From Escherichia coli (GTDB taxonomy: Bacteria > Pseudomonadota > Gammaproteobacteria > Enterobacterales > Enterobacteriaceae): DNA of 64,000 nucleotides. Below are positions 1-45,786 of this stretch, in pieces. Both the position numbers and the translations under genes were made by a program. Under the pieces are notes generated by a model. The model was given only the letters and a program-made list of their open reading frames with translations, was not told where the DNA came from and ran no database searches. The stretch lies in assembly GCF_003334305.1 (NCBI RefSeq), contig NZ_QOWS01000007.1. The stretch is one strand, 5' to 3'. The stretch's first letter is position 1; each line of letters starts with the position of its first letter.

Positions 1-82
1 GCAGTTCGTTGGCTTTAGCCAGCACCTCTTTTACATCCTTAAACTGATATACATTGCCGAACAATGTGGTCTTTAGTTTCAT
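1..82 (-). CDS. eutB: Ethanolamine ammonia-lyase large subunit EutB, N-terminal 27 codons only (gene runs off the window start)
   Basis: Reverse complement of 1..82 translates MKLKTTLFGNVYQFKDVKEVLAKANEL, matching the EutB N-terminus; start codon 12 bp downstream of the eutA stop. Confidence 0.8.
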   Translation of the reverse strand, partial: MKLKTTLFGNVYQFKDVKEVLAKANEL

Positions 83-93
83 AAGTCGTTCCC

Positions 94-1497
94 TCAGGAA
101 GGAAATGCGAGTGATTTCACCGTCACCGGCACAACCGATCCGCCAAAAAGAGGCGTACCAATGTCGATATAGTCCCCCGCGCGGACAATCACTTCGTCAA
201 TGACTGCCAACGGGAGTTGTTGTAGCTGTGGGCGCAACAACATGCCCAGAGCTTTACCAAAGTCCTGCCCGGCCACCACCAGCAGGGGATGCGGATTCGG
301 AAAACGCGCGACGAAATCGACCAGCGCGTTGATGACCGTCAGTACCGCGGCGTAACGCACAGGCAGCGAGGCGGGAAGCGCCAGCACGTACGCGTCAGTT
401 TTGGGATCAAGATCCAGCTGAAGCAGCGCCTGTTGCCAGGCACTCACCAGATCCGTTTCATCAATCGGGATCGCCACCGGCAAATTGCGCAGCGGCAGTT
501 GTACGCCCTCCAGCCAGATTGTGCTGCCAGAGAGCGAAAGGGTATGTGCACCCGCGCCAATCACCGTGGCGCGTACGGTTTGCGCCGGAAACTGCACATT
601 CATCTCACGCAGGCGCGGATGGTCATGCAGCGCCGTTGCCAGAAGTGGGCCAATATCGGCAAAACAGAACGGGTCGGCGGGCTGGTGGCGATAACATTCG
701 CCCACGCCTCCAGAAAGCGTAATGATTTCGGGCGTAACACCTGCGGGCAGCAAACCGGTTTGCATCAATGCCTGCGCGAGCGGCGAAAGCGTTCCGTCAA
801 TCACTTCGACAATCAGCGCCGCCATCCGCCGGGTAACCTGCACCAGCTGCGCGCCGGTCAGCGAACGGGCGTCAGTGCCTGCACCGAAGCACTCATCCAC
901 AATCATCTGCCCCGGTTTATGAGCGTAAACCACGCGCCCCTGGCTGTCGGTTTCCAGCAGGCGACCACCGACGTTGAGACAGGCAGTGCCGCTGATTTTT
1001 CCGGCATCGAACAGGGCGTAGTTCGCGGTGCCACCGCCGATGTCGATATTCAGTACCCGACACAGCCGTTGTTCAGAAAGGGTTTGCGCCCCAGCTCCGT
1101 GACCGGCGATCACGGATTCGAGGTGCGGCCCGGCGCTGGCAACGACAAAATCCCCCAGCGATTGAGAGAGCGCCATCACCGCCGGGCGAGCATTGCGGGT
1201 TTTCGCGCTTTCACCGGTGATGATGATGGCACCAGAATCAACGCTTTCCGGCGCAATACCCGCAGCCTGATATTGCTCGAGTATTAAGGTTTTCAGTTCC
1301 GCTTCTTTTAAACCGCCCTGTTTATCGACAGGGGTAAAGAACACCGGACTTTGCCAGCTAATTTCGCGTTTAATGAATTCGTAGCGCGGCACCTGCGACA
1401 CCGCCGCACGGTTAACCAGCTCCAGGTGGGAGAAAATCACCTGGGTGGTGGTGGTGCCGATATCGATACCGACGCTCAATAGCTGGCGAGTGTTCAC
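94..1497 (-). CDS. eutA: Ethanolamine ammonia-lyase reactivating factor EutA
   Basis: 467-aa ORF, recognised EutA sequence; position in eut operon. Confidence 0.92.
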   Translation of the reverse strand: MNTRQLLSVGIDIGTTTTQVIFSHLELVNRAAVSQVPRYEFIKREISWQSPVFFTPVDKQGGLKEAELKTLILEQYQAAGIAPESVDSGAIIITGESAKTRNARPAVMALSQSLGDFVVASAGPHLESVIAGHGAGAQTLSEQRLCRVLNIDIGGGTANYALFDAGKISGTACLNVGGRLLETDSQGRVVYAHKPGQMIVDECFGAGTDARSLTGAQLVQVTRRMAALIVEVIDGTLSPLAQALMQTGLLPAGVTPEIITLSGGVGECYRHQPADPFCFADIGPLLATALHDHPRLREMNVQFPAQTVRATVIGAGAHTLSLSGSTIWLEGVQLPLRNLPVAIPIDETDLVSAWQQALLQLDLDPKTDAYVLALPASLPVRYAAVLTVINALVDFVARFPNPHPLLVVAGQDFGKALGMLLRPQLQQLPLAVIDEVIVRAGDYIDIGTPLFGGSVVPVTVKSLAFPS

Positions 1498-2720
1498 GAT
1501 TGTGCCTCCGCTTCGGTTTTAGTCGCGGTCGCGTCTTCTTTTGGCACCAGCATCATCGCCACGCCAATCGCCGTTACGCCGCCGATCAACTTGCCGACAA
1601 TCATCGGGAAGATCATGGCGTTCATGTTGGCAGCGGCGAAGCCTAAGTGGTCGCCCAGGGCGAAAGCAGCGGAAACGGCGAAGGCGCAGTTGATGACTTT
1701 GCCGCGGGTATCCATCTGCTTCATCATGCCGAACATCGGGATGTTGTTGGCAAGCGTTGCCACCATGCCGGCTGCCGCGATGTTGTTCATATTCAGTACT
1801 TTACCGACGCTCATCAGCGGTTTTTCAAACCAGCGAGTCAGCAGCAGCACCATTGGATACGCCCCTAACAGCACGCAGGAGATAGAACCGATAACTTCAA
1901 TGGCGCGCATCACTTCACCGGGTTTATCGCCAGGGGCCATAAAGATAGGATCCAGACCGGGGATCAGTTCCCAGCCAAGCAGGAATTTCACTACCGCAGC
2001 GGCAAGACCGAGGGTGATCAATGCAACGAGGAATTTGGCGAAGATCTGGAAGCCGTTGATCATTTTTTCCGGGATGAATTTCAGCCCCAGCGCCACCAGA
2101 ATCGCAACAATGATCACCGGGATCATGTTCATCAGGATCAGGGCGAAAGTGAATTCCACCGGCTGACCGTTGATCTGCACACCGGAGTACATAGCAACCA
2201 GACCACCAGCAATACAGCCAATCGGAATGGTCACAATGCCCGCCAGCACGCCGAGCGCCAGATAACGACGATCAGAAGGTTCGATAATGCCGAGCGCCAC
2301 CGGAATGGAAAACACAATCGTTGGCCCCATCATCGACCCGAGAATTAACCCAGAGTATAGCCACGCTGCTACGTCGCCGCCCGCCAGCTCTTTGGCGAGG
2401 AAGAAGCCGCCCATATCGCACGCCAGCAGCGTTCCGGCGAACATTGACGGGTTTGCGCCGAGCATTTCGTAAACCGGGATAATTACCGGCCCGAGTACGT
2501 GAGCCAGTACCGGTGCCAGCGCGGTCATACCGACCATCGCCAGACCCAGAGCGCCCATTGCCATAAAGCCTTCTTCGAACTGACCGCCAGATCCTTCGAT
2601 ACTTTTACCGAACTTACCGAGGAAACGAGCAGAACCGCCGAACTGCGACAGGATCCTGTCTACGGCAGCTATCAGCATAAAGAACATCATGATGTACATG
2701 ATGATTTCGTTAATTCCCAT
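1494..2720 (-). CDS. eutH: Ethanolamine permease EutH
   Basis: 408-aa highly hydrophobic ORF, recognised EutH; 4-bp overlap with eutA. Confidence 0.92.
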   Translation of the reverse strand: MGINEIIMYIMMFFMLIAAVDRILSQFGGSARFLGKFGKSIEGSGGQFEEGFMAMGALGLAMVGMTALAPVLAHVLGPVIIPVYEMLGANPSMFAGTLLACDMGGFFLAKELAGGDVAAWLYSGLILGSMMGPTIVFSIPVALGIIEPSDRRYLALGVLAGIVTIPIGCIAGGLVAMYSGVQINGQPVEFTFALILMNMIPVIIVAILVALGLKFIPEKMINGFQIFAKFLVALITLGLAAAVVKFLLGWELIPGLDPIFMAPGDKPGEVMRAIEVIGSISCVLLGAYPMVLLLTRWFEKPLMSVGKVLNMNNIAAAGMVATLANNIPMFGMMKQMDTRGKVINCAFAVSAAFALGDHLGFAAANMNAMIFPMIVGKLIGGVTAIGVAMMLVPKEDATATKTEAEAQS

Positions 2721-2749
2721 CGCCTTTACTCCCTGTTAGTTGTTATTTA

Positions 2750-2836
<87 letters not shown>

Positions 2837-4024
2837 TTATTGCGCCGCTGCGTACAAGCCGACAATCTGCTCCAGGCTGGCGGTACGCGGGTTGCTGCGC
2901 AGACAAATATCTTCCTGCGCGGCCTGCGCCCATGCACCGTAATGCGCAGATGTCGCGCCAACATCGCCCAGTCGTTTACCAATCCCAACTTCCGCAATCA
3001 GCTCACTTACCGCGTTAATAGCGTCATGATCGTCGGATTTTTTAGTTCGCAGTGCCCGACCAATCTGACTAAAGCGTTCACGACAAACCATCCGGTTAAA
3101 TTCCATCACTGTTGGCAGCAACATGGCGTTCGCCAGACCGTGCGGAATATGCAGCGCCGCGCCCGGCTGATGCGCCATCGCGTGGCACAACCCAAGACCC
3201 GCACTGGAAAACGCCATTCCCGCCATACATGAAGCCAGCAACATGCTCTCGCGCGCGGCAAGGTCGTGACCGTAGCCCACCGCTTTCGGCAGCGATTTGC
3301 CAATCATCGCAATGGCACCAATCGCCAGACTGTCGGTAAACGGTGTAGCGTTCAGGGCGCTGTATGCTTCAATGGCATGGGTTAACGCATCAATGCCGGT
3401 CATCGCCGTGACATGCGACGGCACACCTTCGGTCAATGCGGCGTCGAGGATCGCCACATCCGGCATCAGCGAGGCATGGGCTAACACCTGCTTGCGCCCG
3501 CTCACCGCGTCGATAATCACCGTTACATTGGTGGTTTCAGAGCCGGTTCCGGCGGTAGTTGGAATGGCAATCAGCGGCAAGCGCGGTTGCAGAACGCTGG
3601 TTTCTGACATCTCTGCCAGCGTGCTATCCGGGTTCGTCACCAGCAACGCCACGGCTTTCGCCGCATCCAGCACCGAGCCGCCGCCAAATGCGATCACCCC
3701 GTCACAACCTGACTCACGCAACTGCGCCACGGCTGCACACACGTCGGTAATGCACGGTTCGCCCACCGGACATAGCCAGAGCGTCATGGCGATACCTTTA
3801 ACGGCCAGGCTACGCGTCAGCCCGGCGGTCATCCCTGCCTGATGCAAAAAGCTGTCTGCCATCACGAACAGATGTTTCAGCCCACGCGTTTGCGCTTGCT
3901 GTCCGCAACTGCTCACCGAGCCCGGACCGCAAAGCGTCACCGGTGGAACGCTAAATGTTTTTACCCGTTGCAGATTCAGGGTATCGAACGCCTGAAAGAG
4001 CGCGGTCTGCAATTCATTTTGCAT
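2837..4024 (-). CDS. eutG: Ethanolamine utilisation alcohol dehydrogenase EutG (iron-containing ADH family)
   Basis: Track ORF is 404 aa; start chosen at internal MQNELQTALFQ (395 aa), which overlaps the eutJ stop in typical operon fashion. Confidence 0.88.
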   Translation of the reverse strand: MQNELQTALFQAFDTLNLQRVKTFSVPPVTLCGPGSVSSCGQQAQTRGLKHLFVMADSFLHQAGMTAGLTRSLAVKGIAMTLWLCPVGEPCITDVCAAVAQLRESGCDGVIAFGGGSVLDAAKAVALLVTNPDSTLAEMSETSVLQPRLPLIAIPTTAGTGSETTNVTVIIDAVSGRKQVLAHASLMPDVAILDAALTEGVPSHVTAMTGIDALTHAIEAYSALNATPFTDSLAIGAIAMIGKSLPKAVGYGHDLAARESMLLASCMAGMAFSSAGLGLCHAMAHQPGAALHIPHGLANAMLLPTVMEFNRMVCRERFSQIGRALRTKKSDDHDAINAVSELIAEVGIGKRLGDVGATSAHYGAWAQAAQEDICLRSNPRTASLEQIVGLYAAAQ

Positions 4025-4850
4025 ATAGCCCCTCCGCTTTCTCTCGCCCACTACTGGCGATCGCCAGCGGGGTCATAAACAAACTGTGCTGCGGTAAATG
4101 CACCTGTAACGCCGGGAATTGTTTGCGAAACAGTTCCGCCACGCCCGGTTGCATACAAGAGCCGCCCGCCAGCCATAAATCAGTAATGCCCTGCCCTTCA
4201 ATATGCCGGGCGACAATGTCCGCCATTTTTTCGTACACCGGTTTCACCGCGGGCCAAATCTCGTCACCATGACCGCGCTTGTACTGCTCTGCCTCTTCCA
4301 GCGAAATACGACGATTTCCGGCGAGAGTCAGAGAGATGTGATGTCCGCCGGTGGCTTCATCCGCCGAGTACGTCACCTTGCCCTTTTTCACGATGGCAAT
4401 GCCGGTAGTGCCGCCGCCGATATCCACTACACCGGCGTTGTCCAGTTGCAGCAGATCCGCGACTGCGGTTGGCTCATCCAGCACATGGCTCACTTCCAGC
4501 CCGGCAGATTCCAGCACGTTGATGGAAATACGCGGGTCCGTACCTGGAGGAAATGAAGTCGCCGCATGGCTAAAACGAAGACCGAATTGCTGCTCAAGAG
4601 TGTCGAGATGGCGACGAACAATGGTGACCGCACCGAAGAAATCCCAGACGATGCCGTCGCGGACCACATCGGCCCAGTCGAGGCATACCGCCACCGGCTG
4701 ACCGTCGCGGTCAACAACCATCGACACCACATCGCAGGTGCCCAGATCCACCCCCAGCCACAGCGGAGATTCCGTCGCGGCAGGCGTCTGGTTACACAGC
4801 GTTGCCGCCGTTTGCAGACGTGGGGTGAGCCATTGTTCGTCGTGCGCCAT
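4014..4850 (-). CDS. eutJ: Ethanolamine utilisation chaperone-like protein EutJ (actin/Hsp70 fold)
   Basis: 278-aa ORF, recognised EutJ. Confidence 0.9.
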   Translation of the reverse strand: MAHDEQWLTPRLQTAATLCNQTPAATESPLWLGVDLGTCDVVSMVVDRDGQPVAVCLDWADVVRDGIVWDFFGAVTIVRRHLDTLEQQFGLRFSHAATSFPPGTDPRISINVLESAGLEVSHVLDEPTAVADLLQLDNAGVVDIGGGTTGIAIVKKGKVTYSADEATGGHHISLTLAGNRRISLEEAEQYKRGHGDEIWPAVKPVYEKMADIVARHIEGQGITDLWLAGGSCMQPGVAELFRKQFPALQVHLPQHSLFMTPLAIASSGREKAEGLYAK

Positions 4851-4860
4851 CGGTTACTCC

Positions 4861-6264
4861 TTAAACAATGCGAAACGCATCGACTAATACACAGCGACGC
4901 AGACGGACAAACGTCCGCGCGCTGGTTACCCCTTCACCGGTTGGCGTGGTGATGGTCATGGTGGTCCAGCCTTCCCCGCCCAGCCCCAGCCCGGCAATGC
5001 ACGGTCCGTTCTTAACGAAAATGCTGGTATCAATGGCGTTCGCCATCTGGTTCATGTTTTCGATATTGCGCGAGTGCATTGCCGCCGTGTGGTGGCAACC
5101 GCCCTCCAGTTTCACCGCCAGCGCAATGGCATCCGCCACGTTGGCGACGCGCACGACGGGCAGCACCGGCATCATCAGTTCGGTCACGGCAAACGGATGT
5201 TCTGCAGTGGTTTCCACAAACAGCAAACGCGTTTCTTGCGGCACGTTCAGGCCGATTGCCGCCGCGATTTTCGCCGCATCGCGACCAACCCAGTCACGGC
5301 TGACGGTGCCTTTTCCGCGCTCGTCGATATTTTTCAGCAACACCGGTTGCAGCTGCTGCGCCTGTTCTGCGGTCAGTTTCACCGCGTGCTGGCCTTCCAT
5401 CAGACGCATCAGTTCATCGGCTACGCTATCAACAACAATCAGTACCTTTTCGTCGGCACAAATGATGTTGTTATCGAAAGAAGCGCCTTTGACGATGGAC
5501 TGAGCGGCACGGGCGAGGTCGGCGGTTTCATCCACCACTACCGGCGGGTTGCCAGCGCCTGCGGCAATCAGACGTTTATTGGTGTGTTTACGCGCCGCTT
5601 CTACTACCGCTTCGCCGCCGGTTACCACCAGCAGGCCGATACCCGGAAACTTGAACAAGCGTTGCGCGGTTTCGATATCCGGATTTGCCACAGTAACCAG
5701 TAAGTTTTCCGGCCCACCTGCGGCAACAATCGCCTGGTTGAGCAGCGTAATCGCCCGCTGGGAGACTTTTTTCGCCGCCGGATGCGGGGCAAAAATGACG
5801 CTGTTGCCCGCGGCAATCAGGCTGATGGCGTTATTAATTACGGTTGCCGCCGGGTTAGTGGACGGAGTTACCGAAGCCACCACGCCCCAGGGTGCGTTTT
5901 CAATTAGGGTCAGGCCGTTGTCGCCAGTCAGCACTTGCGGAGAGAGGCACTCAACGCCTGGTGTGCCGCGCGCCTGAGCGACGTTTTTTGCAAATTTATC
6001 TTCAACGCGCCCCATGCCGGTTTCACTGACGGCAAGTTCCGCTAAATCTCTGGCGTGTTTTTCGCCTGCTTCACGAATGGCAGCAATGGCTAACTGGCGC
6101 ATTGCCACGCTTTTTAACCCTTGCTGGGCGACTTTGGCTGCCGCAACGGCGTCATCCAGGGACGCGAAAACGCCCATCTCATGAACGGCGGCGGACGGCG
6201 TGTCACTGCTTTGCATTTTCAGCAGTACCGCTTTCACCACCTGTTCAATATCCTGTTGATTCAT
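4861..6264 (-). CDS. eutE: Acetaldehyde dehydrogenase (acetylating) EutE
   Basis: 467-aa ORF, aldehyde dehydrogenase family, recognised EutE. Confidence 0.92.
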   Translation of the reverse strand: MNQQDIEQVVKAVLLKMQSSDTPSAAVHEMGVFASLDDAVAAAKVAQQGLKSVAMRQLAIAAIREAGEKHARDLAELAVSETGMGRVEDKFAKNVAQARGTPGVECLSPQVLTGDNGLTLIENAPWGVVASVTPSTNPAATVINNAISLIAAGNSVIFAPHPAAKKVSQRAITLLNQAIVAAGGPENLLVTVANPDIETAQRLFKFPGIGLLVVTGGEAVVEAARKHTNKRLIAAGAGNPPVVVDETADLARAAQSIVKGASFDNNIICADEKVLIVVDSVADELMRLMEGQHAVKLTAEQAQQLQPVLLKNIDERGKGTVSRDWVGRDAAKIAAAIGLNVPQETRLLFVETTAEHPFAVTELMMPVLPVVRVANVADAIALAVKLEGGCHHTAAMHSRNIENMNQMANAIDTSIFVKNGPCIAGLGLGGEGWTTMTITTPTGEGVTSARTFVRLRRCVLVDAFRIV

Positions 6265-6275
6265 GATGTTCTGCC

Positions 6276-6563
6276 TTATTTGTGGAAAATTACCTGACCG
6301 CCAGACACCACCTCATCGACAATGCCAATCACGCACAGATCGACCGGTGACGTTTCGCTTTTATGCGCCTGGCGGGCGGAACTGCCACTCACCAGTAACA
6401 CCCACTCCCCGGTTCCCGCGCCAATATTGTCGATGGCGACGGCGCATTGCCCGTCAGGATTACCTTGTGGATCAATCATTTCCACCATCAGCAATTTGTC
6501 ATGCGCCAGTCCGTGATGGCGTACGGTACAAACAATTTGTCCAGTGACGACTGCCAGTTTCAT
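6276..6563 (-). CDS. eutN: Microcompartment vertex (pentamer) protein EutN
   Basis: 95-aa ORF, recognised EutN. Confidence 0.9.
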   Translation of the reverse strand: MKLAVVTGQIVCTVRHHGLAHDKLLMVEMIDPQGNPDGQCAVAIDNIGAGTGEWVLLVSGSSARQAHKSETSPVDLCVIGIVDEVVSGGQVIFHK

Positions 6564-6669
6564 ACCCGCCTCCGTGGCGTATTTCAGGTAAAAGCTCCCC
6601 CTACCCTCCGCAGAAGGTAAAATGAAAAAGGAGAGAGCGTGACGCCCGAATCGACGTCACACAGGGTGA

Positions 6670-6963
6670 TTACAGGTTGCTGCTATCGCCTTTCAGGCCG
6701 ATCGGGAAGACTTCTTCCAGGTCGCCGTGCGGACGCGGGATAACGTGTACAGATACCAGCTCGCCGATACGCTGTGCCGCTGCGGCACCTGCATCGGTCG
6801 CGGCTTTACAGGCTGCAACATCACCACGAACCATGGCAGTACACAGGCCGCCGCCAATCTGCTTAACACCAACCAGCTTGACGCGCGCAGCTTTCACCAT
6901 CGCGTCAGAAGCCTCAATCAGTGCAACCAGGCCCCGGGTTTCGATCATTCCTAATGCTTCCAT
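6670..6963 (-). CDS. eutM: Microcompartment shell protein EutM (BMC domain)
   Basis: Track ORF is 111 aa; start chosen at [22 protein letters not shown] (97 aa), canonical BMC-domain N-terminus. Confidence 0.9.
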
Positions 6964-7001
6964 TGTGCTTTCCTCTTTATCAGGGTCCAGAACGGGACCG
7001 T

Positions 7002-8018
7002 TCATTCAACCAGTGTTTGTAAACTGCTTTCGCGGTTCACTTCTGTCTGACGCGGCACAGCTGCCACCAGCGCCAGCTCGATAATTTCCTGCACGCTACA
7101 ACCACGAGAGAGATCGTGCATCGGCGCGGCAAGTCCTTGTATCAGTGGCCCGACGGCACGATATCCGCCGAGTCGTTGTGCGATTTTGTAACCAATATTT
7201 CCGGCTTCCAGCGACGGAAAAACCATCACATTGGCCTTGCCCTGTAGCGGGCTGGCAGGCGCTTTTTGCGCCGCCACTTCCGGCACGAAGGCGGCGTCAA
7301 ACTGTAACTCGCCATCCACCACCAGCTTTGGTGCGCGCTCACGGACGATTTCTGTCGCCTGCTGGACGTTAGCAACACAGGGGTGACGGGCGCTACCATT
7401 GCTGGAAAACGACAGCATCGCCACGCGCGGCTCTTCTCCGGTGATGGCGCGCCAGGTTTCGGCACTGGCAAGCGCGATATCCGCCAGCTGCGCCGCCGTC
7501 GGCTGTGGCACCACGCTGCAATCGGCAAAGCCCAACGCCGGGCCGCTGTACTGTGGCAACATCAGGAAAATGGAAGAGAGCGTTTTACAGCCTGGCTGCA
7601 AGCCGATAATGCGTAATCCGGCACGCAGCACATTTGCCGTGGAAGAGAGGTTGCCCGCGATACAGACATCCGCTTTACCGGCGCTGACCATTGCTGCGGC
7701 GAACATCAGAGGGTCGGTAAGTTTTTCCAGCGCATCCGGCGGCGTTTTTTCGCCCGCGCGGGCCAGCCAGCGATGAGCAAATTCTTCCCGCATTGCGAGG
7801 TTGCCATGCGGATCAATCACCTGTAGCCCGTCCATCGCCACGCCGTGACTGAGCGCAAACTGACGAAGTTCAAACGGATTGGCGACCAGAATGGGCGTTG
7901 CCAGACCTTGTTGATGTAAATATTGCGCGGCTTTCAGCACACGTTGGTCTAACGCATCCGGAAAAACCACTCTGGCGGGCGCTCGCAACGCCAGTTCACG
8001 ACAACGTTCAATAATCAT
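7002..8018 (-). CDS. eutD: Phosphotransacetylase EutD
   Basis: 338-aa ORF, recognised EutD. Confidence 0.92.
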
Positions 8019-8818
8019 TGCGTTTCCCCCAGTCGTTGTTGGATCTGCTTCACCGTTAGCGGCTGCTTCGTTACGCTCAGGATCATCATCACGTAGACCG
8101 TGCTGGAAAGGCGGTTCAGCGCCTGCAAAATGTCCGGGCGTAATACTTCAAAGCTGCGGGTGATAAACACCTGCGCCGCTACGGTTTCGGTTTCCCGCAC
8201 TTTGGTACGTAGCAGATTGAGCAACGCCGCATCGCGCCCGTGGCTGGCTTCCGGCACCAGATGATCGTGGTCGAGATAGCGCAGCGGCTGGTGAGAAAGT
8301 CGATGCAGATCTTCGTCAGAAAGCCCGACAATCGCCTGGCAGCCCAGCGGTTCACCCAGCGCATCGGCGCGCATAATGTTGCCAAGACGCGAACGGATAT
8401 CCGCCAGCCACGGCTGCCACGGTTCCGCCAGTTCAATTTGCAGCCACACTGCCAGCGCAATGGTGCTGTCGAGAACCGCGCGAAAACCCAGACGCGGATC
8501 GCTTTTGGCGACCATTTTTTCCGCCGACAGGTGAGTCAGCGTATCCGGCTTTTTTGCCACCGGCTGGCGGCACAGTTCGCAGCACGCCTGCGGATGTTCA
8601 TCGCTACTGGTCAGCCCATGAACGGGCTGCGGCTGCTGCTGTTCATCGTCAACAAACAGGCGGCCCTGCTCGTCAATAAACTTGATGCGCAGATGGCGGC
8701 TTTCCAGTAACTCCCGGGCAGAGGGCGTCAGGCGACTGTCCGCAGGGAGATGGATCTCTGCGCCTTCGCTGAGCGTATGGTTCGCTCTTAGCCATGCTTC
8801 GGTGATGAAATCTTTCAT
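8015..8818 (-). CDS. eutT: Cobalamin adenosyltransferase EutT
   Basis: 267-aa ORF, recognised EutT; 4-bp overlaps with flanking genes. Confidence 0.9.
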
Positions 8819-9516
8819 AGGGATTGCCAGTTAGCCGGCCAGGCGACATACAGGAATTTCACGCTGGATGTCGTACCAAATTCGATACTGGAGCCTTTCG
8901 GGATAAACATCACGTCACCCGCTTTGGCGATCATGGTTTCGCCTTCGTGGCGAACATGCAGCTCCCCTTCCAGCACCATGTCGATTTCGTCGTAGTTCAG
9001 GGTCCACGGGAAGAATGCGTTCTCCCACTGCATAAAACCAGCGGCCATGCTGCTGCCGTCGTCTCCGGTCACAAGATCAGTCAAGCCCACGCAATGCGGC
9101 TCTGCGCCGTCGAAACGACCAAACTTGACGCTGCTGCCATCAATCACTTTGATGCCGCCTTTGCCGGTCACCGATTTGAAGCTCGGCTGCATTGCGCCCT
9201 GCTCCAGCGACTGTTTTTCCTTCATCACTTTTTCCATCAGCTGTGCGACCAGGCTTTCGGTAAACTGGCCTTCCGGCAGCTGGGCAATGATGGTTTCGCG
9301 GATGCGCTGGCTTTCGGTTTTGTCGGCTGGCACGCTGGCGGGCACGGACGCCGTTACCGGGATCGATTCATCACATTCGGTGATGGTAAAACCCAGTAGA
9401 TCCGCCACTTCACGGGCTTCCGGGGTAATAATGCTGGCGCGCAGAACCACGGACATTGCCTGTTCGCCGCGCGCGTGTGCTTCACGAATATCATTCGCTG
9501 TGATGAGTTTTTTCAC
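8815..9516 (-). CDS. eutQ: Ethanolamine utilisation protein EutQ (cupin, acetate kinase activity)
   Basis: 233-aa ORF, recognised EutQ. Confidence 0.9.
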   Translation of the reverse strand: MKKLITANDIREAHARGEQAMSVVLRASIITPEAREVADLLGFTITECDESIPVTASVPASVPADKTESQRIRETIIAQLPEGQFTESLVAQLMEKVMKEKQSLEQGAMQPSFKSVTGKGGIKVIDGSSVKFGRFDGAEPHCVGLTDLVTGDDGSSMAAGFMQWENAFFPWTLNYDEIDMVLEGELHVRHEGETMIAKAGDVMFIPKGSSIEFGTTSSVKFLYVAWPANWQSL

Positions 9517-9970
9517 CTGCTTCCTCCTGTTTGGTGAGAGATGCCAGATAATCCACCAGTTGCTGCACGCTTTGCGGGTCGTGGCTGTTTAGCTCGAAAA
9601 TCGGCTCTTCGAAACCCGTCTCAAGCAATAACTTTCGCGTTGCGGCGACGTCAGCATCTGGCATGTCCGTTTTACTGATGACGGCGATTTGCCGTTTGCT
9701 GACGCCAATATCCAGCAACCCGGCAGGCAACCGACTTTCCGGGTCATTTGCGCCATGGACATAGATCAGCATGTCTACATCCTGTAGCGTGGTAATTAAG
9801 GCGTGATACCAGCGGGGATGGCTAAAATATTCACCCGGCGTATCAATATCGCCCTTATCATTAAATTCCACGGCCTGTGTTTTTCTGGCGAGGGTATAAT
9901 TCCCCTGCAACGCATTAAATAACGTTGTTTTTCCTGCCCCGACGGTACCCACAAACGCAATTCGTTTCAT
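9491..9970 (-). CDS. eutP: Ethanolamine utilisation protein EutP (P-loop NTPase)
   Basis: 159-aa ORF with Walker A GTVGAGKTT, recognised EutP. Confidence 0.9.
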   Translation of the reverse strand: MKRIAFVGTVGAGKTTLFNALQGNYTLARKTQAVEFNDKGDIDTPGEYFSHPRWYHALITTLQDVDMLIYVHGANDPESRLPAGLLDIGVSKRQIAVISKTDMPDADVAATRKLLLETGFEEPIFELNSHDPQSVQQLVDYLASLTKQEEAGEKTHHSE

Positions 9971-9982
9971 GAATGCCTCGTA

Positions 9983-10318
9983 TTAACTTTTGGTCATTTC
10001 ACAAAGCGTATAATTTAATAAGCGACCTAAACCGCTGACGGTTTGTGATAACGCTTCTTCTACTGCGCCCACCGAGCCATAAATCACCAATGCACCGCTG
10101 AAGCGGTCGAGAAAACCGATATGCACATCAGCGGCTTTCAGCGCTAAATCACCGGCGATCATCGCCGTTTCGCCGGGAGTTAGCGTCATAATGCCAATTG
10201 CGCCCGCATCCGGAACGCCGATTTTCTTCGCCAGTTCCTCACCGGGATGCGCGATGAGATGCGCCAGTGTGACCTGTTTGCCGGGCACAAATTCCTGAAT
10301 GATGCGTTCTTTATCCAT
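9983..10318 (-). CDS. eutS: Microcompartment shell protein EutS
   Basis: Track ORF is 135 aa; start chosen at [15 protein letters not shown] (111 aa). Confidence 0.87.
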
Positions 10319-31368: not shown

Positions 31369-31767
31369 TTAGCTCCAATCTTCTAGTCTGATTCCCGCCA
31401 CTCGCTCAAACTCTCGGGTATTGTTGGTAACCACAATCAAACCGCGACTGCGAGCATGTCCCGCTATCATCTGGTCAAAAGGTCCAACAGGCCTTCCCTG
31501 CCGGGCAAGCTCGGCCCTGATTTGCCCGGTATGCGTCGCAGCAGCACTATCATAATCAAGCACTTCCAAACGAGATACGAAACCTTCAATCACCGCCAAA
31601 TTGCGTTCTGGCATCTGACTTTTTTCTGCCCCATAGATAAGCTCCATCAATGTTACAGAACTTATACACATCCGGCCAGAATTCAGGTTAAACCGCTCTC
31701 TGACATGTACTGGTTTATTCTTAATAGTGAAAATACAGATATTGGTATCCAGCATGAATTTCAGCAT
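31369..31767 (-). CDS. vapC: PIN-domain ribonuclease toxin, VapC family (closest recalled relatives Shigella MvpA / Salmonella VapC, which cleave initiator tRNA-fMet)
   Basis: 132-aa ORF beginning MLKFMLDTNICIF with conserved PIN acidic residues; near-identical in my recollection to enterobacterial VapC/MvpA; 1-nt ATGA overlap with the upstream antitoxin ORF. Confidence 0.85.
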   Translation of the reverse strand: MLKFMLDTNICIFTIKNKPVHVRERFNLNSGRMCISSVTLMELIYGAEKSQMPERNLAVIEGFVSRLEVLDYDSAAATHTGQIRAELARQGRPVGPFDQMIAGHARSRGLIVVTNNTREFERVAGIRLEDWS

Positions 31768-31994
31768 CAGAATGATTCCCTTTCCTGCATTGCGGGTTGA
31801 TCACGGATATCCATAAAATCCGCACTCACATTTTCGCCATCAAACCAACTGTCCCAGGACTCACCGGCGGGAGTGATGATTCTTGTACGACCAATCGCAA
31901 TAATTTCTACTTTCTTAACATCCTCTGGCAGAGCGACCGCTTTCGGTAATCTGACGGCCTGACTGCGATTACTTAAAAATACAGTAGTTTCCAT
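31767..31994 (-). CDS. vapB: VapB-type antitoxin (AbrB/SpoVT/MazE swapped-hairpin DNA-binding domain)
   Basis: Track ORF is 88 aa; start chosen at METTVFLSNRSQAVRLPKAV (75 aa), preceded by a G-rich SD; stop overlaps the vapC start. Confidence 0.8.
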   Translation of the reverse strand: METTVFLSNRSQAVRLPKAVALPEDVKKVEIIAIGRTRIITPAGESWDSWFDGENVSADFMDIRDQPAMQERESF

Positions 31995-39090: not shown

Positions 39091-40038
39091 ATGAGACAAA
39101 CTCTTTGCGACGGATATCTGGTTATTTTTGCGTTAGCACAGGCCGTGATTCTGCTGATGCTAACCCCACTTTTTACGGGTATTTCCCGGCAGATACGCGC
39201 GCGTATGCACTCCCGCCGCGGGCCGGGGATCTGGCAGGATTATCGCGATATCCACAAACTGTTTAAACGCCAGGAAGTTGCGCCGACATCTTCAGGTCTG
39301 ATGTTCCGCCTGATGCCGTGGGTATTAATCAGCAGCATGCTGGTGCTGGCGATGGCCTTACCACTGTTTATTACCGTTTCCCCTTTTGCGGGCGGCGGCG
39401 ATCTGATCACCCTTATCTATCTTCTTGCCCTGTTTCGTTTTTTCTTTGCTCTTTCCGGGCTGGATACCGGAAGTCCGTTTGCGGGAGTCGGTGCCAGTCG
39501 CGAGTTGACGCTCGGCATTCTGGTCGAACCAATGCTTATTCTCTCACTGCTGGTATTGGCGCTGATAGCAGGTTCCACGCATATCGAGATGATCAGCAAT
39601 ACGCTGGCGATGGGCTGGAACTCGCCGCTAACCACCGTACTGGCGTTACTGGCCTGTGGTTTTGCCTGCTTCATTGAGATGGGAAAAATTCCCTTTGATG
39701 TTGCTGAAGCAGAACAGGAATTACAGGAAGGCCCGCTGACCGAATATTCCGGTGCCGGGCTGGCGCTAGCGAAATGGGGGCTGGGGCTGAAACAGGTCGT
39801 GATGGCATCACTGTTTGTGGCCCTGTTTCTGTCCTTTGGGCGCGCGCAAGAACTTTCTCTCGCCTGCCTGCTGACTTCACTTGTCGTTACGCTGCTCAAG
39901 GTTTTGCTGATTTTTGTACTGGCCTCAATCGCGGAAAACACGCTGGCACGCGGGCGTTTTTTACTCATTCACCATGTGACCTGGCTTGGCTTCAGCCTTG
40001 CTGCGCTTGCATGGGTCTTCTGGTTAACCGGTCTGTAA
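39091..40038 (+). CDS. hyfC: Hydrogenase-4 membrane subunit HyfC (NuoH-like)
   Basis: Track ORF is 322 aa; start chosen at MRQTLCDGYLVIFALAQ (315 aa). Confidence 0.9.
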   Translation: MRQTLCDGYLVIFALAQAVILLMLTPLFTGISRQIRARMHSRRGPGIWQDYRDIHKLFKRQEVAPTSSGLMFRLMPWVLISSMLVLAMALPLFITVSPFAGGGDLITLIYLLALFRFFFALSGLDTGSPFAGVGASRELTLGILVEPMLILSLLVLALIAGSTHIEMISNTLAMGWNSPLTTVLALLACGFACFIEMGKIPFDVAEAEQELQEGPLTEYSGAGLALAKWGLGLKQVVMASLFVALFLSFGRAQELSLACLLTSLVVTLLKVLLIFVLASIAENTLARGRFLLIHHVTWLGFSLAALAWVFWLTGL

Positions 40039-40054
40039 GGAGCACTGACGGAAT

Positions 40055-41285
40055 ATGGAAAATCTTGCTCTGACGACGTTAATGCTGCCTTTTATCGGCG
40101 CACTGGTCGTTTCGTTTTCGCCACAACGTCGGGCCGCCGAATGGGGGTTTTGTTCGCCGCACTGACCACGCTGTGCATGTTGTCGCTGATCTCCGCGTTT
40201 TATCAGGCCGATAAAGTTGCCGTCACGTTGACGTTGGTCAACGTGGGGGATGTGGCATTGTTTGGCCTGGTCATTGATCGCGTGAGTACGCTGATTCTGT
40301 TTGTGGTGGTGTTTCTCGGTTTGCTGGTCACGATCTACTCCACGGGTTATCTGACGGATAAAAATCGCGAACACCCGCATAACGGCACGAATCGTTATTA
40401 CGCATTTTTGCTGGTGTTTATCGGCGCGATGGCGGGACTGGTACTCTCCTCGACGCTGCTCGGTCAGTTGTTGTTTTTTGAAATTACGGGCGGCTGCTCC
40501 TGGGCGTTGATCAGTTATTACCAGAGCGATAAAGCGCAGCGTTCAGCACTAAAAGCGTTGCTTATCACCCATATCGGTTCGTTGGGGTTGTATCTTGCCG
40601 CCGCCACGCTGTTTTTGCAGACCGGAACGTTTGTGCTTAGCGCGATGAGCGAGTTACATGGCGACGCACGTTATCTGGTTTATGGCGGCATCCTGTTTGC
40701 CGCGTGGGGGAAATCGGCCCAGCTACCGATGCAAGCGTGGCTACCGGACGCAATGGAAGCGCCAACACCGATCAGCGCCTATCTCCACGCCGCATCGATG
40801 GTGAAAGTGGGCGGCTGGCACTGGAGGGCAGCATCGCCTACATCGTCAACCACGCGTTCGCTAAAAGCCTGTTTTTCCTTGTAGCAGGTGCGCTGAGTTA
40901 CAGCTGCGGCACGCGCTTATTGCCGCGTCTGCGTGGCGTATTGCACACCCTGCCGTTGCCAGGCGTGGGTTTCTGCGTGGCAGCGCTGGCGATTACCGGT
41001 GTGCCGCCGTTCAACGGCTTCTTCAGTAAATTCCCGCTGTTTGCCGCCGGTTTTGCGTTGTCAGTGGAGTACTGGATCCTGCTGCCCGCCATGATTCTGC
41101 TGATGATTGAATCGGTCGCCAGTTTCGCCTGGTTTATTCGCTGGTTTGGTCGCGTTGTGCCTGGCAAACCGAGCGAGGCCGTCGCCGATGCCGCACCGCT
41201 GCCAGGGTCAATGCGCCTGGTGTTGATTGTACTGATTGTGATGTCGCTGATTTCCAGCGTAATCGCCGCGACCTGGTTGCAGTAA
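40055..41285 (+). pseudogene. hyfD: hyfD, hydrogenase-4 NuoL/M/N-like membrane subunit, disrupted by frameshift plus internal deletion
   Basis: Reading frame opens at ATG 40055 (MENLALTTLMLPFIGALVVSFSPQRRAAEW), hits a stop after 36 codons, resumes in another frame (track ORF 40141..40884) and again in a third frame (40704..41285); the conserved D-x-KRLLA-x-S motif present in hyfB and hyfF is absent; total span 1231 nt against about 1440 nt recalled for intact hyfD. Confidence 0.75.
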
Positions 41286-41951: not shown

Positions 41952-43532
41952 ATGAGTTATTCTGTGATGTTCGCTTTACTCCTGCTCACGCCGCTGCTTT
42001 TTTCGCTGCTCTGTTTTGCCTGCCGGAAACGGGGGCTCTCTGCGACTTGTACGGTGACTGTATTACATAGCTTAGGGATCACACTGCTGCTGATTCTGGC
42101 ACTCTGGGTGGTCCAAACTGCCGCTGATGCAGGAGAAATATTCGCTGCGGGACTGTGGCTTCATATTGATGGTCTGGGCGGTTTGTTCCTCGCCATTCTT
42201 GGTGTGATTGGCTTTCTCACCGGTGTTTACTCGATTGGCTACATGCGTCATGAAGTGGCACACGGCGAGCTTTCACCCGTTACACTGTGCGATTACTACG
42301 GTTTCTTCCATCTGTTTTTGTTCACCATGCTGCTGGTTGTTACCAGCAATAACCTGATTGTGATGTGGGCGGCGATCGAAGCCACCACCTTAAGCTCGGC
42401 GTTTCTGGTAGGCATTTACGGTCAGCGTTCATCGCTGGAATCAGCATGGAAGTACATCATTATTTGTACTGTTGGTGTCGCTTTTGGTCTGTTCGGTACC
42501 GTGCTGGTATACGCCAACGCCGCCAGCGTTATGCCGCAGGCAGAAATGGCGATATTCTGGAGCGAGGTTCTTAAGCAATCGTCCTTGCTTGACCCAACAT
42601 TAATGCTGTTGGCCTTTGTGTTTGTGCTAATTGGCTTTGGTACCAAAACCGGGCTATTTCCCATGCACGCCTGGCTGCCGGATGCTCACAGTGAAGCGCC
42701 GAGTCCGGTCAGCGCCCTGCTCTCCGCCGTATTGCTGAACTGCGCGCTGTTGGTGCTGATTCGCTATTACATCATTATTTGCCAAGCCATCGGCAGCGAT
42801 TTCCCCAACCGGTTGTTGCTCATCTTCGGCATGTTGTCGGTTGCCGTGGCGGCATTTTTCATTCTGGTACAGCGGGACATTAAGCGTCTGCTGGCGTACT
42901 CCAGCGTGGAGAACATGGGGCTGGTCGCGGTGGCGCTAGGCATTGGCGGGCCGCTGGGAATTTTTGCCGCGCTGCTGCACATCTTAAACCACAGTCTGGC
43001 AAAAACGCTGCTGTTCTGCGGTTCCGGCAATGTACTGCTCAAGTACGGCACGCGCGATCTCAACGTCGTCTGTGGGATGCTCAAAATCATGCCATTTACC
43101 GCCGTGCTGTTTGGCGGCGGTGCGCTGGCGCTGGCAGGGATGCCGCCCTACAACATTTTTCTTAGCGAATTTATGACCATTACCGCCGGACTGGCACGTA
43201 ATCACCTGCTGATTATCGTCCTGCTGTTATTGCTGTTAACGCTGGTGCTGGCGGGCCTGGTACGGATGGCAGCGCGGGTGTTAATGGCGAAACCGCCGCA
43301 GGCCGTTAACCGGGGTGATCTCGGCTGGTTGACCACCTCGCCAATGGTGATTCTGCTGGTCATGATGCTGGCGATGGGAACGCATATTCCACAACCTGTC
43401 ATCAGGATCCTGGCGGGCGCTTCCACTATAGTCCTCTCAGGGACGCACGACCTGCCTGCACAACGTAGCACCTGGCATGATTTTTTGCCTTCAGGCACCG
43501 CATCTGTTTCGGAGAAACACAGTGAACGTTAA
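41952..43532 (+). CDS. hyfF: Hydrogenase-4 membrane subunit HyfF (NuoL/M/N antiporter-like)
   Basis: 526-aa polytopic ORF with [17 protein letters not shown] and [11 protein letters not shown] motifs. Confidence 0.92.
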
Positions 43533-45237
43533 TTCATCGTCAAATCGTGGCGAAGCGATTCTCGCCGCCCTGAAAACGCAGTTCCCCGGCGCGGTGCTGG
43601 ATGAAGAGCGACAAACGCCTGAACAGGTCACCATTACGGTGAAAATCAATCTGCTGCCTGACGTTGTACATTATCTTTATTATCAACATGATGGCTGGCT
43701 TCCAGTCCTGTTTGGCAACGACGAGCGGACACTTAACGGTCATTACGCGGTTTATTATGCCCTTTCAATGGAAGGGGCCGAAAAATGCTGGATCGTGGTG
43801 AAGGCACTGGTCGATGCCGACAGTCGGGAGTTTCCGTCAGTCACACCGCGCGTCCCTGCCGCGGTCTGGGGCGAGCGAGAAATTCGCGATATGTACGGGC
43901 TGATTCCGGTTGGCCTGCCGGATCAGCGTCGCCTGGTGTTGCCCGATGACTGGCCGGAAGATATGCATCCGCTGCGCAAAGATGCGATGGATTATCGACT
44001 GCGCCCTGAACCGACGACAGATTCCGAAACGTATGCGTTTATCAATGAGGGCAACAGCGATGCGCGGGAGATCCCTGTCGGCCCGCTGCATATCACCTCC
44101 GATGAACCGGGTCACTTCCGCTTGTTTGTGGATGGCGAGCAAATTGTCGATGCTGATTACCGCCTGTTTTATGTCCATCGCGGCATGGAGAAACTGGCAG
44201 AAACGCGGATGGGCTACAACGAAGTGACCTTCTTATCGGACCGCGTGTGTGGGATTTGCGGTTTTGCCCACAGTGTGGCCTATACCAATTCGGTTGAAAA
44301 TGCACTGGGGATTGAGGTGCCGCAACGAGCACATACTATTCGCTCGATTCTGCTGGAAGTCGAACGGCTACACAGTCATTTGCTTAACCTTGGCCTCTCC
44401 TGCCATTTCGTTGGTTTTGATACCGGCTTTATGCAATTTTTCCGCGTGCGGGAAAAGTCGATGACGATGGCGGAATTGCTGATCGGGTCGCGTAAAACCT
44501 ACGGTCTGAATCTGATTGGTGGTGTTCGCCGCGATATTCTCAAAGAGCAACGTCTGCAAACGCTGAAACTGGTGCGCGAGATGCGCGCCGACGTGTCGGA
44601 GCTGGTAGAGATGCTGCTTGCCACGCCGAATATGGAACAACGCACTCAGGGCATTGGCATTCTCGACCGACAAATCGCCCGTGATTATAGCCCTGTAGGG
44701 CCGCTGATCCGCGGCAGTGGTTTTGCCCGTGATTTGCGCTTTGATCACCCCTACGCCGACTACGGCAATATTCCAAAAACACTGTTTACCTTTACCGGCG
44801 GCGATGTTTTCTCCCGCGTGATGGTCCGTGTCAAAGAGACGTTTGATTCGCTGGCAATGCTGGAATTTGCCCTCGACAACATGCCGGATACCCCACTGCT
44901 GACCGAAGGCTTTAGCTATAAACCTCACGCATTCGCGCTGGGCTTTGTTGAAGCGCCACGCGGTGAAGACGTGCACTGGAGCATGCTCGGTGATAACCAA
45001 AAATTGTTCCGCTGGCGCTGCCGTGCCGCCACCTACGCCAACTGGCCGGTGTTGCGTTACATGCTGCGCGGCAATACCGTTTCTGACGCACCGCTGATTA
45101 TCGGTAGCCTTGATCCCTGCTACTCCTGTACCGACCGTGTGACGCTGGTAGATGTGCGCAAGCGCCAGTCAAAAACCGTGCCGTATAAAGAGATCGAACG
45201 CTACGGCATTGATCGTAACCGTTCGCCGCTGAAGTAA
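43522..45237 (+). CDS. hyfG: Hydrogenase-4 large [NiFe] subunit HyfG (NuoC/D-like)
   Basis: Track ORF 43477..45237; start tentatively placed at GTG 43522 ([10 protein letters not shown]) with ggaga SD 6 nt upstream; CxxC Ni-binding motifs ([19 protein letters not shown]); exact start uncertain. Confidence 0.85.
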
Positions 45238-45246
45238 GGACAGAAG

Positions 45247-45786
45247 ATGCTGAAGTTACTGAAAACTATTATGCGCGCCGGAACCGCGACGGTGAAATAT
45301 CCCTTCGCGCCACTGGAGGTCAGCCCAGGCTTTCGCGGGAAACCGGACCTGATGCCCAGCCAATGTATTGCCTGCGGCGCCTGTGCTTGTCCGGCAAATG
45401 CGCTGACTATCCAGACCGACGACCAGCAAAATTCGCGCACCTGGCAGCTCTATCTGAGGCGTTGTATTTACTGCGGACGTTGTGAAGAAGTGTGCCCGAC
45501 CAGAGCCATCCAGCTTACCAATAACTTTGAACTGACCGTCACCAATAAAGCCGATCTCTATACCCGCGCGACGTTCCATCTACAACGTTGCAGCCGTTGC
45601 GAACGCCCGTTTGCCCCGCAAAAAACCGTCGCACTGGCTGCTGAATTGTTGGCACAGCAACAAAATGCGCCACAAAACCGCGAAATGTTGCGGGCGCAAG
45701 CGAGCGTCTGCCCGGAGTGCAAACAACGCGCGACGCTGATCAACGACGATACAGATGTACCGCTGGTGGCTAAGGAGCAGCTATGA
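45247..45786 (+). CDS. hyfH: Hydrogenase-4 ferredoxin-type subunit HyfH
   Basis: 179-aa ORF with two CxxCxxCxxxCP motifs. Confidence 0.9.

Follow-up and report, generated by a model that had tools for sequence, protein, structure and literature searches.

A doubly disrupted hyfD allele, with lesions common among Escherichia coli genomes, in the hydrogenase 4 operon

The DNA analysed here (the window) is a stretch of 64,000 nucleotides from Escherichia coli, taken from contig NZ_QOWS01000007.1 of RefSeq assembly GCF_003334305.1. It includes a complete hyfABCDEFGHIJR-focB cluster, the gene order that characterizes the hyf operon, which encodes formate hydrogenlyase-2, a group 4a [NiFe]-hydrogenase. 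Within this cluster, the plus-strand interval 40055..41285 between hyfC and hyfE is occupied by a remnant of hyfD. The remnant, its component parts and its two neighbours are as follows.

39091..40038, plus strand: hyfC, the upstream neighbour, open, 315 aa
40055..41285, plus strand: the hyfD pseudogene, whole remnant, 1231 nt as compared with 1440 nt in the intact gene (K-12 alignment; RefSeq annotation of strain H15)
40055..40165, plus strand: hyfD segment 1, consisting of the original start, 29 native and 7 aberrant codons and a premature stop; its translation is MENLALTTLMLPFIGALVVSFSPQRRAAEWGFCSPH, followed by the stop
40143..40147, plus strand: G5 run where intact alleles have G6; the resulting -1 frameshift affects codons 30-32 (K-12 alignment)
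40161..40161, plus strand: SNP, A in place of the G at K-12 nt 108, linked to G5 (sampled alleles)
40163..40165, plus strand: premature TGA stop produced by the frameshift (translation)
40141..40884, plus strand: hyfD segment 2, an ORF that encodes HyfD residues ~30-252 in frame up to 40810 and continues out of frame until it reaches a stop
40810..40811, plus strand: junction of a 208-bp deletion (K-12 nt 758-965; HyfD residues 253-322), with GCG microhomology at 40811-40813
40811..41285, plus strand: hyfD segment 3, which encodes HyfD residues 323-479 in the third of the three frames and runs to the native TAA
41297..41947, plus strand: hyfE, open, 216 aa, preceded by an AGGAG of its own 7 nt 5' of the ATG

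The mechanically called ORF that holds segment 3 begins further upstream, at a GTG at 40704 (40704..41285). A preliminary description of the window had proposed that the gene is split over three frames, with 36 codons from the ATG at 40055 followed by ORFs at 40141..40884 and 40704..41285, and the translations agree with this; stops are found in all three frames of the remnant. An Rfam scan of the whole window produced no matches. The closest annotated relative is strain H15, which differs from the window at 4 positions over 50 kb. Its hyfD copy (RG53_RS12505) is labelled by RefSeq as 'hydrogenase 4 subunit D, frameshifted' and is the same allele as that of the window, with an identical sequence, and it is the sole pseudogene in the RefSeq annotation of that 50 kb stretch.

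The lesions were defined in a three-way alignment, with the 1440-nt hyfD of K-12 MG1655 as the reference; the length of the intact gene stated in the preliminary description was accurate. Intact hyfD genes are present at the same locus, between the same hyfC and hyfE neighbours, in K-12 MG1655 (HyfD, 479 aa, WP_000429104.1) and in O157:H7. Outside the indels, the window hyfD is ~98-99% identical to both at the nucleotide level, but unlike them it lacks one G and nt 758-965, and consequently cannot yield a full-length product. Relative to K-12, the window gene has exactly two indels, of -1 nt and -208 nt. The first reduces the G6 run at K-12 nt 89-94 to G5 at 40143-40147, as expected from the earlier suggestion that one extra G at this site would restore the frame. 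The second had been estimated at about 208 bp near 40810; it is exactly 208 bp, with the junction at 40810|40811, so that the earlier position was correct to within 1-2 bases. The deleted stretch is non-repetitive, and only 3 bp of microhomology (GCG) accompany the deletion, the position of which is ambiguous by 3 nt. In its orthologous position and high identity, its destroyed reading frame and the recurrence of its lesions in independent sequences (vide infra), the remnant has the attributes of a pseudogene.

The two lesions have different consequences at the protein level. The frameshift ends hyfD translation at codon 37, and the deletion removes 70 residues (253-322). In K-12 HyfD, Pfam assigns residues 70-103 to PF00662 and residues 133-413 to PF00361 (Proton_antipo_M), and all of the lost residues lie inside the latter. 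The deletion starts just past the conserved LPDAMEAPTPISAYLHAASMV stretch, and at the junction the sequence passes from LHAASMVKVG directly to RLALEGSIAYIVNHAFAK, omitting QQDMKRLLAWSTITQLG, which K-12 HyfD has within the stretch deleted from the window. The missing part includes the D-x-KR-x-LA-x-S segment, which occurs at residue 295 of K-12 HyfD and is absent from the window hyfD. It was stated previously that the paralogs keep the helix that carries this motif, and both indeed do: the window HyfB has DIKRLLAWS at residue 299 and the window HyfF has DIKRLLAYS at residue 309. Similarly, no continuous PF00361 domain can be assembled from the window hyfD, as its two flanks are in different frames.

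K-12 HyfD can be aligned over nearly its full length with NuoL (3rko_L) and MrpA (7qru_A), with E ~1e-47, and also with HycC (7z0s_C) of the solved FHL-1 complex. The lost residues correspond to NuoL residues ~263-325 and, in these alignments, fall within the conserved NuoL and MrpA core. Unlike NuoL, MrpA and HycC, the window remnant is without this stretch and is split over three frames.

The position of one potential start codon raises the question of whether a functional product could nevertheless be made, whether by programmed frameshifting, by slippage of transcription in the G run or by assembly of fragments from a split gene. The ATG at 40141 coincides with the frameshift site and begins a stretch in the native frame, and G runs can slip; low-level rescue is conceivable for alleles with G5 alone, such as that of E. 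coli B. Re-initiation at ATG 40141 is conceivable in the window allele, but the resulting product would still be without the domain core, since the 208-bp deletion breaks the frame again at 40810|40811 and removes 70 residues of PF00361. Slippage at the G run would not bring the protein back, since 208 (3 x 69 + 1) is not divisible by three. A Shine-Dalgarno sequence was looked for 5' of ATG 40141 and none was found. The arrangement is also not conserved, as intact alleles are in the majority and most E. coli have the unshifted G6. A functional product of this kind is accordingly considered very improbable. Translation of hyfE should be independent of hyfD, given that hyfE has its own AGGAG, although the approximately 1.1 kb of untranslated hyfD mRNA may cause Rho-dependent polarity on the downstream genes.

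The frequency of each lesion was determined in a set of 5426 complete E. coli genomes. The deletion junction was detected with an 80-nt probe spanning it, using an E-value cut-off that half-matches cannot reach, and was found in 921 of the 5426 genomes; the intact 208-bp segment was found in 3369, giving 4290 genomes with a full-length locus. Exact matches to a 68-mer containing G5 were present in 992 genomes and exact matches to the corresponding 69-mer containing G6 in 2794. The two sites were then cross-tabulated with a three-piece chimeric query, for which coverage of at least 80% requires both the exact 68- or 69-mer and the junction-spanning 80-mer. The deletion is accompanied by G5 in at least 350 genomes and by G6 in 472 (a further 99 carriers are unclassified, having SNPs in the 68-mer), and G5 is found without the deletion in about 642, which include E. 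coli B derivatives. Both single-lesion haplotypes are thus common and, as each lesion is found with and without the other, the two are independent polymorphisms. At least ~36% of the complete genomes that have hyf carry the G-run frameshift, the 208-bp deletion or both in hyfD.

The RefSeq product name ('hydrogenase 4 subunit D' as opposed to 'hyfD: ...HyfD') was tried as a proxy for the deletion and was rejected, as it applied to 18 of 60 sampled rows, compared with 921 of 4290 genomes by the junction probe; it also fails because frameshifted alleles without the deletion retain the gene name. The hyfC-hyfE stretch has no match in 1130 of the 5426 complete genomes. Six genomes match it partially; CUWW06, for example, is matched at the hyfE end only, though its hyfG is present.

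These frequencies bear directly on the possibility, raised in the preliminary description, that the lesions are sequencing or assembly artefacts, consisting of a homopolymer miscall at the G run combined with the collapse or misassembly of 208 bp. Indels in homopolymers are a frequent type of error, and a single window was the starting point here. However, 992 complete genomes share the G5 68-mer and 921 share the junction, and the 2001-bp stretch across hyfD is identical in nine complete RefSeq genomes from varied hosts and laboratories and approximately one base off in 19 more. The absence of repeats from the deleted stretch, which offers only 3 bp of microhomology, also argues against misassembly. 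Finally, the G5 run co-segregates with a nearby SNP (vide infra), which is not how random errors behave. An artefact is on this evidence virtually excluded.

For a more detailed view of the origin of the lesions, twenty hyfD alleles from different length classes were aligned. Four distinct lesions are present among them: loss of a G at nt 89-94, loss of a C at nt 434, the 208-bp deletion and an in-frame 216-bp deletion. The C loss at nt 434 does not lie in a homopolymer and is seen alone, with G5, or with G5 and the 208-bp deletion. In the triple-lesion alleles the deletions total 210 nt, yet stops in the shifted stretches still inactivate the gene. A G4 run had been considered as the source of the length class that differs by 1 nt (spans of 2000, 2001, 2002, 2208, 2209 and 2210), but this class proved to be due to the C deletion at nt 434. 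The in-frame deletion removes nt 371-586, between 8-bp direct repeats (GCGCGATG), and is found in 243 genomes; RefSeq accepts the deleted gene as encoding an intact protein of 407 aa (WP_057107541.1).

Among these alleles, G5 occurs with A at nt 108 in 12 of 12 cases and G6 with G108 in 8 of 8. This complete linkage indicates that G5 has a single origin, and is not the product of recurrent slippage or base-calling error. All pairwise combinations of the G loss, the C434 loss and the 208-bp deletion exist, as judged by the four-gamete test, and the SNP haplotypes that flank the lesions are mosaic. The simplest account would be that lesions of single origin have been reshuffled by homologous recombination.

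The same observations were used to evaluate whether the G run might act as a phase-variable switch, a contingency locus that turns hyfD on and off. The occurrence of both G5 and G6 with and without the 208-bp deletion is what such a switch could produce, but the tract is just 5-6 nt long, and the invariable A108 background of G5 in the 20 sampled alleles points to a single origin instead of recurrent toggling. Recurrent, independent changes in tract length, by which contingency loci are recognized, were not seen in the hyfD G run of these alleles. Recombination explains the mixing of G-run and deletion states, and it also shuffles the lesions at nt 434 and nt 758, neither of which is in a homopolymer. 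Phase variation at this locus therefore seems highly unlikely.

The age of the inactivation was considered from substitution patterns. The pN/pS of the remnant relative to K-12 is 0.05, a value that gives no sign of relaxation and from which it follows that most of the divergence is older than the inactivation, and that the inactivation is recent relative to the divergence of the alleles. SNPs private to disrupted alleles number 14 nonsynonymous and 19 synonymous; this compares with 9 and 36 among the rest, made up of intact-allele and shared SNPs (Fisher p = 0.045), and with 8 and 25 among SNPs of intact-only alleles (p = 0.19), both comparisons being underpowered. These ratios are weakly suggestive of relaxed constraint on hyfD since the lesions arose.

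The preliminary description had also stated that the rest of the operon looks intact. This stands with regard to the ORFs and the RefSeq annotation, given that all eleven other ORFs of the window hyf cluster are open, but not with regard to hyfH (45247..45786). Relative to both K-12 and O157, this gene has an in-frame 6-nt deletion at ~45377 that is unflagged by RefSeq. It removes Ala-Cys and converts the first [4Fe-4S] ferredoxin motif from CxxCxxCxxxCP, the spacing found in HycF, to CxxCxxCxCP. The short hyfH allele is found in about 773 genomes, including O121, NCTC9064, 1919D62 and E. coli B, and the longer form in 3519. The window operon is probably impaired at this second point.

The other genes of the operon were compared, on the basis of RefSeq tables and alignments, in ten genomes comprising O157:H7, K-12 and eight others with a lesioned hyfD. 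O157:H7 is the only one of the ten in which all twelve genes are free of lesions, and in K-12 the single lesion is an in-frame 48-bp gap in hyfG. Seven of the eight genomes with a lesioned hyfD have lesions elsewhere in the operon, and the genes broken in such carriers include hyfB, hyfC, hyfE, hyfF, hyfI, hyfR and focB. A 1-nt deletion at nt 591 of hyfB is common to five of the ten genomes (O121, EC2341, NCTC9064, 1919D62 and FAM21845), and a 1-nt deletion at nt 290 of hyfC is common to E. coli B and 1919D62; judged from the sequences, these are shared frameshifts of single origin. The nonsense and frameshift mutations in hyfE, hyfF, hyfI, hyfR and focB are private. The E. coli B lineage (represented by NEBExpress) combines G5 and a Q479 stop in hyfD with the hyfC frameshift, the 6-nt hyfH deletion and a hyfG gap of the K-12 type, a set of lesions which means that complete Hyd-4 cannot be made in B strains. 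Among carriers of a lesioned hyfD, the window and H15 rank with the least decayed. The pattern across these genomes is read as operon-wide erosion, rather than targeted loss of HyfD.

Taken together, the window hyfD is very probably a true, vertically inherited pseudogene that arose by ordinary decay, through two inherited loss-of-function mutations in a weakly selected operon. The earlier suggestion of gene decay in a little-used operon is thereby supported, with inactivation by the frameshift and the out-of-frame internal deletion. HyfD is one of three antiporter-like membrane subunits (of the NuoL/MrpA type) in hydrogenase 4 (formate hydrogenlyase-2), and in the proposed sequence of events two independent, old mutations, each of single origin, were brought together on the allele found in the window. 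The loss of one G from the G6 run stops translation after 36 codons, and the out-of-frame 208-bp deletion eliminates 70 residues at the centre of the proton-antiporter domain. Both lesions are common polymorphisms of E. coli, very probably moved between backgrounds by homologous recombination, and would belong to a wider decay of hyf genes in an operon that is only weakly selected, the HyfD product being presumably dispensable for catalysis. It would follow that no functional HyfD is made and that any Hyd-4 complex formed here is without HyfD; such a complex is probably impaired further by the deletion in the hyfH Fe-S motif. The open state of the eleven other hyf ORFs in the window is evidence to the contrary, and could mean that some function is still under selection.

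An adaptive interpretation was considered alongside this one, according to which inactivation of HyfD was itself selected, trimming Hyd-4 to an FHL-1-like core (HyfABCGHI) that makes H2 more cheaply. Several observations are compatible with it, beginning with the open reading frames just mentioned. At least four independent hyfD lesions exist at appreciable frequency (the 208-bp deletion in 921 genomes, G5 alone in about 642, the in-frame deletion in 243, and the nt-434 deletion). A pangenome-scale metabolic reconstruction of 2377 E. coli genomes (Sci Adv 2026) ranks hyfD with the most frequently pseudogenized genes, so that it stands out among metabolic genes, and localizes diversity within formate hydrogenlyase to HyfD (PMC13322260). 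When hyfDEF was deleted from the active FHL-2 of Pectobacterium atrosepticum, H2 production was not diminished but rose slightly (Finney et al. 2019; PMC7384014), and in some species hyf-type operons occur from which hyfD has been removed naturally (Finney et al. 2020; PMC7654741).

On the other hand, of the eight further genomes in which hyfD is lesioned, seven are also broken in essential core genes (hyfB, hyfC or hyfI) or in hyfF, hyfR or focB, and the window itself has a damaged Fe-S motif in HyfH. An accumulation of lesions is also to be expected in a gene that is already dead. Moreover, K-12 Hyd-4 has yielded no H2 even under strong expression, whether from the hyc promoter, from the T5 promoter or with a swap of the HycE C-terminus (PMC7654741), and the activity of the E. 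coli Hyd-4 enzyme itself is doubtful. The Pectobacterium case is comparable in that HyfD is lost from a hyf-type formate hydrogenlyase, one that can produce H2 without the extra membrane module. However, that deletion was clean, in frame and inclusive of all three extra subunits of an active FHL-2, whereas the window loses hyfD only and keeps hyfE and hyfF. Selection for the loss of HyfD is thus regarded as unlikely, and ordinary decay is preferred.

The existence of a hyfD pseudogene is already known, both from RefSeq annotation and from the published account of hyfD pseudogenization. That account (PMC13322260) describes the same phenomenon at the species level, and its accessible text does not cover individual lesions, their linkage or their frequencies, which come from the present analysis. 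A search of the literature returned no description of individual hyfD lesions, nor of a truncated or in-frame-deleted hyfG. The hyfD finding by itself matters little, other than as a reminder to check the hyf alleles of a strain before a complete Hyd-4 (FHL-2) is taken for granted in E. coli models or experiments.

A by-product of the comparison, concerning hyfG, is perhaps more important. The window hyfG (43522..45237) contains 48 nt, encoding 16 aa, at 44677-44724 that are absent from K-12 MG1655 and BL21(DE3). The 16-residue segment aligns without gaps to HycE (7z0s_E) in the solved structure of FHL-1. In complex I, the 49-kDa subunits align with the GPxxRxSG motif of the segment. In K-12 the gap falls between 10-bp direct repeats (GCCCGTGATT), which indicates that it is K-12 that has the deletion allele, in frame, in the catalytic subunit of Hyd-4. 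A junction of the K-12 type was counted in 2115 genomes, BL21(DE3) among them, as compared with 2007 for the full-length form.

The gap may explain why Hyd-4 is inactive in K-12 even when it is overexpressed. If the K-12-type gap is inactivating, it would account for the absence of Hyd-4 activity from K-12 constructs with strong promoters, and its presence in both K-12 and B would offer a specific and testable explanation of why Hyd-4 activity has for so long gone undetected in laboratory E. coli. Full-length hyfG alleles such as that of the window would then be material for reconstituting an active E. coli Hyd-4. The states compared here differ by lineage, with the HyfG gap in K-12, frameshifts in hyfC and hyfD together with the hyfG gap in B, and a dead hyfD with a damaged HyfH in the window. 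It can be put forward tentatively, as a possibility that is somewhat against the odds, that the hyf operon is a mosaic of old, recombining loss-of-function alleles, in which each common laboratory lineage has at least one crippling lesion.

Two further features of the window lie outside the hyf cluster. The annotation of H15, which is near-identical, places a vapBC toxin-antitoxin pair on the minus strand at 31369-31994, with ypfJ and purC on either side. The eut operon (eutB to eutS) runs without interruption within 1-10318, and eutB directly adjoins eutA; in K-12 this operon presumably carries an insertion of the CPZ-55 prophage.
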